Source of the DNA: a plasmid
Length of the DNA: 41,714 nucleotides
NCBI RefSeq assembly: GCF_055900595.2
Contig: NZ_JBVWEU010000004.1
Reading direction: 5' to 3' (one strand)
A model generated the notes under the pieces. That model did not search any database. It had not been told where the DNA came from and saw only the letters and a list, made by a program, of their open reading frames with translations. Position 1 is the stretch's first letter; each line of letters starts with the position of its first letter. The translations under genes and the position numbers were made by a program. Positions 10,782 to 11,168 of the stretch are shown here, one piece after another.

Positions 10782-11168
10782 TCAGAATTTTTTGTTGAAC
10801 TTCTTAGGGTCGAAATTCTCACCGATTTTCTTGAAGAATTCTTTATCAATAATGCCGGGACTCTCTGCTTTTTTACTTTCCTGCACTTCAGGCTCAGACG
10901 GTTGTGTATTGTGCAATACACTTTCCGCTGCACCCTTCGCGCTACTCTTATCATGCGTATTGTGCAATACATTTTTTCGGTTTTGCCGCGTTCTATACAG
11001 TGCCATCTCAAGCCCTTTGGCTGTTACCGAAAAGCTGTATTCGCTGTCGAGGATTTCAGCAATTTCATGCCGCGTTAGCCCTCTGTCCAGCCAGTTCTCG
11101 ATTTCATTTAGGCGCAATCTGACAGCAGCCGATAAGTTGCGGGGTTTCAGATCTGCTGGTTTATTCAT
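10782..11168 (-). CDS. Hypothetical small DNA-binding protein (predicted N-terminal HTH, lysine-rich tail)
   Basis: 128 aa; segment WLDRGLTRHEIAEIL looks like a helix-turn-helix; the phased repeat array lies directly upstream; function not recognised. Confidence 0.55.
   Translation of the reverse strand: MNKPADLKPRNLSAAVRLRLNEIENWLDRGLTRHEIAEILDSEYSFSVTAKGLEMALYRTRQNRKNVLHNTHDKSSAKGAAESVLHNTQPSEPEVQESKKAESPGIIDKEFFKKIGENFDPKKFNKKF

Follow-up and report, generated by a model that had tools for sequence, protein, structure and literature searches.

Paired palindromes in the stbA gene of a multiresistance plasmid region as probable embedded copies of a candidate mpr operator

IncW and IncN plasmids have a segregation/conjugation switch, Stb, of which StbA is the centromere-binding helix-turn-helix (HTH) protein (PMC3098194). 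The domain organisation of its homologue in plasmid R388 has been described (bioRxiv 10.1101/2022.04.29.490116): the C-terminal part is protease-sensitive, disordered and "non-conserved", and that publication makes no mention of repeats embedded in it. The present analysis concerns a palindrome that occurs twice in the corresponding part of a stbA gene on a 41,714-nucleotide stretch of plasmid DNA (NCBI RefSeq assembly GCF_055900595.2, contig NZ_JBVWEU010000004.1), hereafter the window. This gene (10782..11168, minus strand) encodes a protein of 128 amino acids with an N-terminal HTH domain and a variable C-terminal tail which hosts the palindromes. The protein matches the NCBIfam whole-protein profile NF041290 (StbA_2 equivalog) with 204.1 bits against a cut-off of 100, over profile positions 1-123 of 123, and more than 800 plasmid records contain the identical allele. 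Like the StbA/stbDR switches of IncW R388 and IncN R46 (PMC3098194; 10.1101/2022.04.29.490116), the locus combines a StbA equivalog, 11-bp-spaced repeats overlapping the promoter and an adjacent MOBF origin of transfer (oriT), with stbB and stbC coming next in its relatives. The palindrome differs in sequence from an stbDR, and its class, defined below, is independent of the StbA HTH and stbDR type.

The second gene of importance here is mpr, known from pKM101 and the IncU plasmid RA3 as coding for a putative zinc metalloproteinase; it is the gene whose promoter bears the palindrome. In the Spartan/SprT/Wss1 family, DNA binding controls the protease. The N-terminal domain of Mpr is predicted to have the fold of these enzymes (PDB 6MDX). 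Spartan binds DNA without sequence specificity, whereas for Mpr comparative evidence suggests sequence-specific recognition of the palindrome and autoregulation. Auxiliary operators inside coding sequence are known from lac O2 in lacZ and gal OI in galE. These resemble the present case in that a repressor site lies in the codons of a neighbouring gene, away from the main operator; unlike them, stbA has as many as four copies, variable in number and placed in either of two frames, within the tail of a segregation protein. ArdC of R388 (PMC7213743) is another plasmid DNA-binding metalloprotease, which binds single-stranded DNA, lies in the establishment region beside the stb operon and has a promoter repressed in the plasmid network. 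It is set apart from Mpr by its description as a different protein family, by the lack of a known sequence-specific site and by its repressors, ArdK and StbA. The operators of KorA and ArdK (PMC9723621) are also short, symmetric or repeated, and lie over the -35 element of several establishment promoters in negative feedback. They differ in sequence (TTGACA-N4-TTGACA) and in having an HTH dimer as their binder, and they have not been described within coding sequence.

The explanation which accounts best for the observations as a whole, and which is judged fairly probable, is that the palindromes in stbA are copies of the mpr operator and that Mpr is the most likely binder. On comparative grounds, the element appears to be a copy, embedded in stbA, of an operator that belongs to the plasmid mpr gene and that is widespread but had not been assigned before, with good evidence for selection at the DNA level and suggestive evidence for Mpr as the binding protein.

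In the window, GTATTGTGCAATAC has two exact matches on the plus strand, at 10906-10919 and 10957-10970, 51 bp apart. With up to two mismatches allowed, 0.23 occurrences per window are expected by chance, and the observed count was reached in 0 of 100 shuffles. An earlier note on this DNA had reported a 14-bp motif occurring twice at this distance, which holds; its coordinates (10905-10918 and 10956-10969) do not, the matches sitting one nucleotide rightward. The motif indeed lies inside the 10782-11168 gene and gives the repeated peptide VLHNT that the note had described, at residues 67-71 and 84-88 of the minus-strand open reading frame (ORF), with the codons GTA TTG CAC AAT AC(G/A) in both copies. 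The symmetric element is longer than first noted, being 16 bp with a 7+2+7 structure (TGTATTG-CA-CAATACA; TGTATTGCACAATACA on the coding strand). Copy 2, the one nearer the 3' end of stbA (10905..10920, minus strand), is a perfect class-1 TGTATTGCACAATACA that matches at 16/16 positions and encodes (S)VLHNT at residues 83-88. Copy 1 (10956..10971, minus strand) reads TGTATTGCACAATACG and encodes (N)VLHNT at residues 66-71; it matches at 15/16 positions, the single mismatch being at outer position 16, and its ACA end is perfect in the sister alleles L002, L007 and L008 (L numbers denote loci and P numbers StbA variants). The spacer between them (10921..10955, minus strand) encodes HDKSSAKGAAES and forms, together with one palindrome, a 51-bp unit. 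The mpr-operator palindrome family is defined here as 16-bp 7+2+7 sites with the invariant skeleton TG.AT.G..C.AT.CA and one class in both arms, and its consensus is TG(T/G)AT(T/C)G-NN-C(A/G)AT(A/C)CA. Both window copies fit the skeleton, at 16/16 and 15/16; beyond them, neither a further palindrome site nor an mpr homologue was found in the 41.7-kb window.

Comparison among StbA lineages indicates that the embedded palindrome is selected as DNA and not as peptide. At residues that are identical between deep StbA lineages, the same codon is used in 38-42% of cases outside the motif versus 100% inside it (15/15 between L009 and L006; 9/9 between L009 and L005). Four arm classes are found, TGTATTG, TGGATTG, TGGATCG and TGTATCG, plus TGGGTCG, and each is mirrored in the opposite arm; class 1 has T:A and class 2 has G:C at operator positions 3/14. 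All copies of the L005/L014 lineage read GGA TTG CAC AAT CCA (GLHNP), a symmetric T>G / A>C exchange that keeps the palindrome despite two amino-acid replacements. The form TGGATCG/CGATCCA (GSHDP) is present in L018 and TGTATCG/CGATACA in L027, L031 and L032, while TGGGTCG/CGACCCA in L024 arises via two mutually complementary synonymous changes. The outcome which the earlier note had named as contrary to its suggestion, synonymous variation in homologues without conservation of the palindrome, is the opposite of what is seen: codons are invariant within the motif and the arm changes are compensatory.

Further evidence comes from distant StbA proteins, whose tails contain odd repeated peptides; these were back-translated with the predictions that VDCAIQ represents the other reading frame and VLCNT a flipped centre. 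Both were confirmed in DNA, L016 having TGGATTG(T/C)GCAATCCA at frame offset 1 and L020 having TGTATTGTGCAATACA. Sites in two reading frames occur within the single stbA of L017, and identical, lineage-matched copies are also present in non-coding DNA. The asymmetric centre is found in both orientations (CA/TG); G7 and C10 are invariant, and positions 8-9 vary freely. It could be argued that protein-level selection acts on VLHNT as a short linear motif in the tail of StbA and that the palindrome is incidental. The peptide does recur two to four times in many StbA tails, and the tail of R388 StbA is needed for full segregation and positioning (10.1101/2022.04.29.490116). The motif, however, shows zero synonymous variation and tolerates V>G and T>P when the palindrome is kept, the same DNA in the other frame gives the unrelated VDCAIQ, identical sites are non-coding or lie on plasmids without stbA, and half of the stbA-mpr loci lack the peptide. 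A peptide function is thus very improbable as the explanation, the second frame and the non-coding copies excluding the peptide as the primary target. The element is very probably a protein-bound site of the mpr-operator family maintained at the DNA level. The suggestion of an embedded operator for another regulator is supported by the invariant codons, the compensatory arms, the second frame and the identical sites at the mpr promoter, the regulator probably being Mpr and not a classical repressor.

The other suggestion of the earlier note, an internal duplication, is supported by natural alleles which step by exactly 51 bp. A 1-copy allele of 111 amino acids (P0072/L001) has exactly one 51-bp unit, motif plus spacer, fewer than the 2-copy form of the window, and a 3-copy form of 145 amino acids (P0001) contains a perfect extra tandem unit. 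Other StbA lineages have 2, 3 or 4 copies with differing spacers, and the copies per stbA range from 0 to 4. Where present, the embedded sites always lie directly after the HTH domain of StbA, in the disordered tail. A recent tandem duplication by replication slippage, neutral and devoid of function, would agree with the exact 51-bp difference between the 1-, 2- and 3-copy alleles and with the weak similarity between the spacer and the sequence after copy 2 (GAAGGGTGCAGCGGAAAGT against GAAGTGCAGGAAAGT). Within one stbA, however, only the 15-19 nucleotides of the motif are identical between units, the remainder having diverged to a weak likeness at most, so that something conserves the motif itself; the motif is also kept between lineages whose proteins share 35% identity, as well as in DNA that is not coding. 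Slippage accounts for the copy-number changes and not for the conservation, and as a full explanation it is extremely improbable. In the mosaic StbA proteins P0107 and P0112 the parentage changes at the motif, and L029 shows a crossover within a palindrome that leaves the hybrid site TGGATTGCACAATACA. Two presumed IncW plasmids proved to be of the L014 lineage, the second of them, L029, being this recombinant. The mosaics and the 51-bp copy series therefore suggest that the palindrome copies behave as short recombination substrates.

Outside stbA, the distribution of the site points to mpr. In complete plasmids of three backbones (L013, L015 and L014; 35-48 kb), sites outside stbA are restricted to two places, one directly following the stb operon and one approximately 30 bp upstream of mpr. 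A site upstream of mpr is also present in the distant MOBF loci L016, L023 and L026, in the Pseudomonas plasmid L027 and on backbones without stbA, namely MOBP L025, IncU L030, IncX (IncX3) L031/L032 and IncFII L033. In all, copies at the mpr promoter were seen in L013, L014, L015, L016 and L025-L033. The plasmid types with the site at mpr comprise IncN, IncX, IncU, IncP-9-like, IncFII and MOBP, and across these backbones mpr is the sole constant companion gene of the site. A metagenome scan with the Mpr alignment gave 80 loci. In 61 of the 80, mpr is preceded within 450 bp by one to four sites, about 30-260 bp from the start codon and mostly at 30-100 bp, and six further loci have one site 0.6-1 kb upstream. 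The sites seem to overlap -35/-10/+1-like elements of mpr, as in L030, where a predicted promoter TTGTGC-17-CATAAT has one site over the -35 element and a second at +1. The gene is named in work on RA3 (as mpr/mpR) and placed beside parS. Motifs of unknown role called "DR1(IR)" and "DR2(IR)" are reported from that RA3 region (PMC4175270), and these are probably the same sites as the mpr palindromes. A literature search for the palindrome sequence itself retrieved unrelated papers only.

Some additional copies were observed around mpr. In IncN1-type plasmids one operator copy lies right after the stop codon of the small ORF following stbC, some 9-12 kb from mpr (L013:35922-35937, L015:32398-32413, L007:2036-2051), and in the L014 type two operator copies are adjacent in front of mpr; it looks as if the ccg/ard/muc leading-region block had been inserted between two original operators in the IncN1 type. 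Further copies downstream of mpr were seen in metagenomic loci (L052/L053 at +796, L064 at +1104, L063 at +2064 and L093/L100 at +1380 from the mpr start). They may belong to the promoter of the next gene, which would point to a small regulon extending past mpr and stbA. Part of the IncN "CUP" repeat is GCTGCACAATCCAC, in which 11/12 positions equal a half-site of the class-2 mpr operator TTGCACAATCCA, while IncN1 itself uses class 1. The repeat is located at 9181-9196 of the window (plus strand, within CTGTGGATTGTGCAGCTCAGCGG) and at 1001, 37005, 39901 and 41137 of L013, and it may be a relic half-operator or a coincidence.

Mpr is a predicted SprT-like zinc metalloprotease (PF10263 at 51 bits versus a cut-off of 25.6) with an HExxH motif and a C-terminal zinc ribbon, and its residues H83, E84 and H87 are invariant or nearly so. 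An AlphaFold model with a pLDDT (predicted local distance difference test score) of 85.7 comprises a folded SprT domain at residues 1-165, a disordered acidic linker and the C-terminal zinc ribbon. The only significant PDB match of the model in Foldseek is the SprT domain of Spartan (6MDX, E 7e-4), to the N-terminal metalloprotease domain, and PADLOC returned no defence-family match for Mpr. Covariation was examined in 81 distinct Mpr sequences, with residues numbered as in L013. The Mpr tree is mostly class 2, with class 1 emerging separately in at least 5-8 clades, and class 1 plus class 4 occupy at least five clades even in a tree of the N-terminal domain only. At Mpr residue 130, 42 of 49 class-2 proteins have E, six have D and one has Y; class 1 has Q or D in 17/17 and class 4 has Q in 3/3. 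Residue 99 is R in 48/49 class-2 proteins, and within class 1 it is R only in the IncN1 clade. When labels were permuted among 31 clade representatives, 0 of 3000 permutations reached the observed association for each of columns 99 and 130. A signal appeared with the 81-sequence set only, and not with sets of 4-11 Mpr sequences. Two mpr loci classed as having no site, in which a relaxed hit was present, fit the residue-operator rule in a blind comparison. Glu is known to prefer C, Arg to prefer G and Gln to prefer A in side-chain/base contacts. In the model, residues 99 and 130 are placed within the folded SprT domain, close to the metal ligands. From the constant companion gene, the residue covariation and the model, we infer that an Mpr dimer binds its own operator. 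The identification of Mpr as the binder of the palindrome tips slightly to the probable side. A separate peculiarity of the class-4 Mpr proteins (L027, L031, L032) is HEQxH in place of HEMxH at residues 83-87 and EIALN in place of EIAMN, in three sequences only, which are too few to link the difference with operator positions 6/11.

Several points weigh against an mpr operator read by Mpr and copied into stbA. Mpr has no classical DNA-reading domain, with neither an HTH nor a ribbon-helix-helix (RHH) domain recognisable, and we know of no precedent for sequence-specific duplex binding by a SprT domain. Aspartate occurs at Mpr residue 130 in both class 1 and class 2, and the covariation between residues and operator could be indirect. 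About 10 of the 80 metagenomic mpr loci have no site within 1.2 kb. A literature search found no published regulator, operator or function for mpr or for these repeats, nor any paper on plasmid SprT-like proteins. All arm changes are compensatory, as a hairpin would also predict. With regard to the embedded copies, no promoter-like sequence was found near the internal stbA sites; only 7/15 metagenomic stbA-mpr loci have embedded copies and 8/15 do not, and the stbA of L026 also has no embedded mpr-type copy. The stbA copies are therefore dispensable.

Some of these points would be equally expected if the palindrome were a true duplex operator of the mpr promoter bound by another protein, either a plasmid regulator or a host factor, with an indirect covariation of Mpr. 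This alternative, which is possible but rather unlikely, would fit the absence of an HTH or RHH domain from Mpr and the occurrence of aspartate at residue 130 with both classes. It would also agree with the small unrelated ORF found between the site and mpr in some backbones, and with the reliance of R388-type networks on the dedicated repressors ArdK, KorA and StbA. However, mpr is the only gene which accompanies the site across the six plasmid types, and a host factor leaves unexplained the lineage-specific symmetric switches among plasmids with common hosts.

The individual candidates were examined and rejected. The StbA HTH domain was rejected since the stbDR type is uncoupled from the palindrome class and no alignment column separates the classes: the window and L005 have ACTACA-type stbDRs in common and differ in palindrome class, and the window and L003/L006 have the palindrome in common and differ in their stbDRs. 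The TrwA-like RHH protein has an identical beta-strand in a class-1 and a class-2 lineage, and the class does not track this strand. StbC is membrane-anchored through a C-terminal transmembrane segment and has no DNA-binding domain, and L029 couples an IncN1-type StbB with class-2 mpr operators. The operator of ArdK does not match, and the "ArdR"-annotated and other small ORFs upstream of mpr are mutually non-homologous. Known sites fared no better. For the LexA box, CTGT-N8-ACAG, the spacing here is N10 at best. The parS/KorB OB sites were rejected on sequence or spacing, and the presumed MOBF nic site (GTGTATAGC against GTGTATTGC) shows no co-variation in L014.

Selection might also act on the complementarity of the arms and not on their sequence, if the palindrome formed a hairpin or cruciform in single-stranded DNA, such as the transferred leading strand, or in mRNA. 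Besides the compensatory arm changes, this proposal could draw on the position of the stb-mpr region next to oriT in MOBF plasmids and on the folding of copy 2, which is somewhat better than that of shuffled sequences (RNA -6.0 kcal/mol, z -2.9; DNA -4.4). Folding is nevertheless weak, copy 1 reaching -1.7 kcal/mol with z +0.2, and even very distant plasmids agree at 8/14 arm positions, which are invariant. In a hairpin, G7 and C10 would fall in the loop and yet never vary, while positions 8-9 do. The presence of sites in both orientations on the transcribed strand, their operator-like overlap with mpr core promoter elements and the covariation with Mpr residues, which a hairpin leaves unexplained, make this proposal quite improbable.

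According to the mechanism proposed for an Mpr-bound operator, both window motifs would be copies of a 16-bp palindromic protein-binding site whose primary and nearly universal location is the core promoter of mpr. A protein with two-fold symmetry would recognise the site in duplex DNA, and site and specificity would co-evolve; this protein would most probably be Mpr itself, making Mpr an autorepressor. In one StbA branch, the codons of the disordered tail, which tolerates sequence change, would have come to hold one to four extra copies, with the peptides VLHNT, GLHNP, GSHDP and VDCAIQ as by-products of the DNA site. Copies would be gained and lost in steps of 51 bp or similar size by recombination between them, the crossover points shuffling StbA modules. 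The class of the embedded copies is that of the mpr operator of the same locus, the sole exception being the recombinant L029. As regards their role, the stbA copies might keep the binding protein in the neighbourhood of the stbDR centromere and oriT, or they might serve stbB-stbC and mpr, the latter 1.3-1.5 kb downstream, as auxiliary or roadblock operators; each particular role is on the unlikely side. In a more speculative extension, which is unlikely, Mpr would be a sequence-targeted SprT/Spartan-type protease. The palindromes would be docking sites that shut off its own promoter and position or activate the protease, amounting to a plasmid-encoded, site-directed "DNA-protein crosslink protease" system. 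The copies in stbA (in RA3, beside parS/oriT) would place a docked Mpr within a few hundred bp of the centromere complex and nic, where it could process the covalently DNA-bound relaxase, StbA/KorB complexes or host factors during establishment. A different perfect 16-bp palindrome, TTTTCGCATGCGAAAA, was observed at L026:2564-2579 in a divergent stbA-like gene, where it encodes FSHAKN. It resembles the RA3 KorB operator/parS TTTCGTACGTACGAAA at L030:1608 and may be another operator embedded in a StbA tail.

Both genes are found on thousands of sequenced resistance plasmids: 2009 records of the plasmid collection contain this StbA family and 2636 contain Mpr homologues. A profile search of genome contigs with the StbA alignment gave two loci. 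If true, the proposal would provide the first handle on mpr, a gene of "unassigned function" for 25 years, in the form of an operator that is defined, an autoregulatory loop that is predicted and two candidate specificity residues. It would also show a protein with a protease fold recognising a particular duplex sequence, and provide a natural case of a regulatory site kept in coding sequence in alternative frames, with a disordered tail serving as "writable" space. It would further explain how StbA's C-terminal domain can seem non-conserved and still hold odd repeated peptides. As recombination joints, the sites give rise to mosaic StbA proteins and so to new combinations of centromere specificity.

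In the window itself, the palindromes are orphan sites, located in an IS903B-bracketed stbA/oriT relic without stbC or mpr, neither of which was found in the 41.7 kb by tblastn or in the ORF list. The stbA-stbB-stbC operon beside a MOBF oriT is complete in relatives (L003-L006, L009, L014-L018 and others) and incomplete here. Of stbB only the first 25 codons are left (10699..10773, minus strand; 96% identical to the StbB of L015 by tblastn), the truncation being caused by an IS903B copy (ORF 9674-10642). Taken in full, the window is an IncR-type multiresistance segment of mosaic make-up, with a RepE-like rep gene, parAB, umuDC, tetA/R, blaTEM, intI1-aadA-sul3 and Tn3-family transposases. From this mosaic setting, the cut stbB and the missing stbC and mpr it follows that the stbA/oriT piece is a relic. 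Upstream of stbA, a predicted promoter (11193..11221, minus strand; TTGACC-17-TAGAGT, a consensus match only) abuts a direct-repeat array and lies downstream of it. This stbDR-type array (11227..11380) consists of 11 units TGTAGT(T/C)T that recur every 11 bp and are grouped as 4, 4 and 3. Its sequence is unrelated to that of the palindrome, and by analogy with the R388 stbDRs (PMC3098194) it is presumed to be the StbA binding site or centromere. An IncN-type oriT core (11499..11531) contains an inverted repeat and a nic-like GGTGT|ATAGC, and this core is conserved upstream of stbA in all related MOBF loci. By the pattern of MOBF oriTs, GGTGT|ATAGC is the putative nic site.

A poly-A run (10971-10977) lies just 5' of copy 1 on the coding strand, and the corresponding run of L002 (1690-1700) has A7 versus A6 and is unannotated. 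Many database StbA variants (P0011, P0066, P0094, P0111, P0116) have frameshifted tails (containing MYCTIRMIRVARRV or QRVPALLIKNSS). Tail frameshifts at the A-runs flanking the motifs could be homopolymer sequencing errors or real frameshift or phase variation. NZ_MW363912 is collinear with the window around stbA only, and the annotation of the remaining window does not draw on it. The relic is bracketed by a complete IS903B-type transposase ORF (9674-10642) and a truncated second copy (11749-12018), the latter cut at approximately 12015, where a tnpA fragment of the Tn3 family (12015-13835) begins. The arrangement could reflect the capture of oriT and stbA in the manner of a composite transposon, and it may explain the "mobilizable" typing of hundreds of such plasmids in PLSDB. 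An IncN1 repA fragment with 98% identity lies at 8444-8749, about 2 kb from the relic, and a separate complete rep gene at 175-861 is 57% identical to IncN RepA and RepE-like by NCBIfam. Two ORFs, 6575-7585 (plus strand) and 34858-35916 (minus strand), match a group II intron reverse transcriptase/maturase with 279 and 296 bits against a curated cut-off of 300; they probably represent copies or pieces of introns lying in the resistance region.

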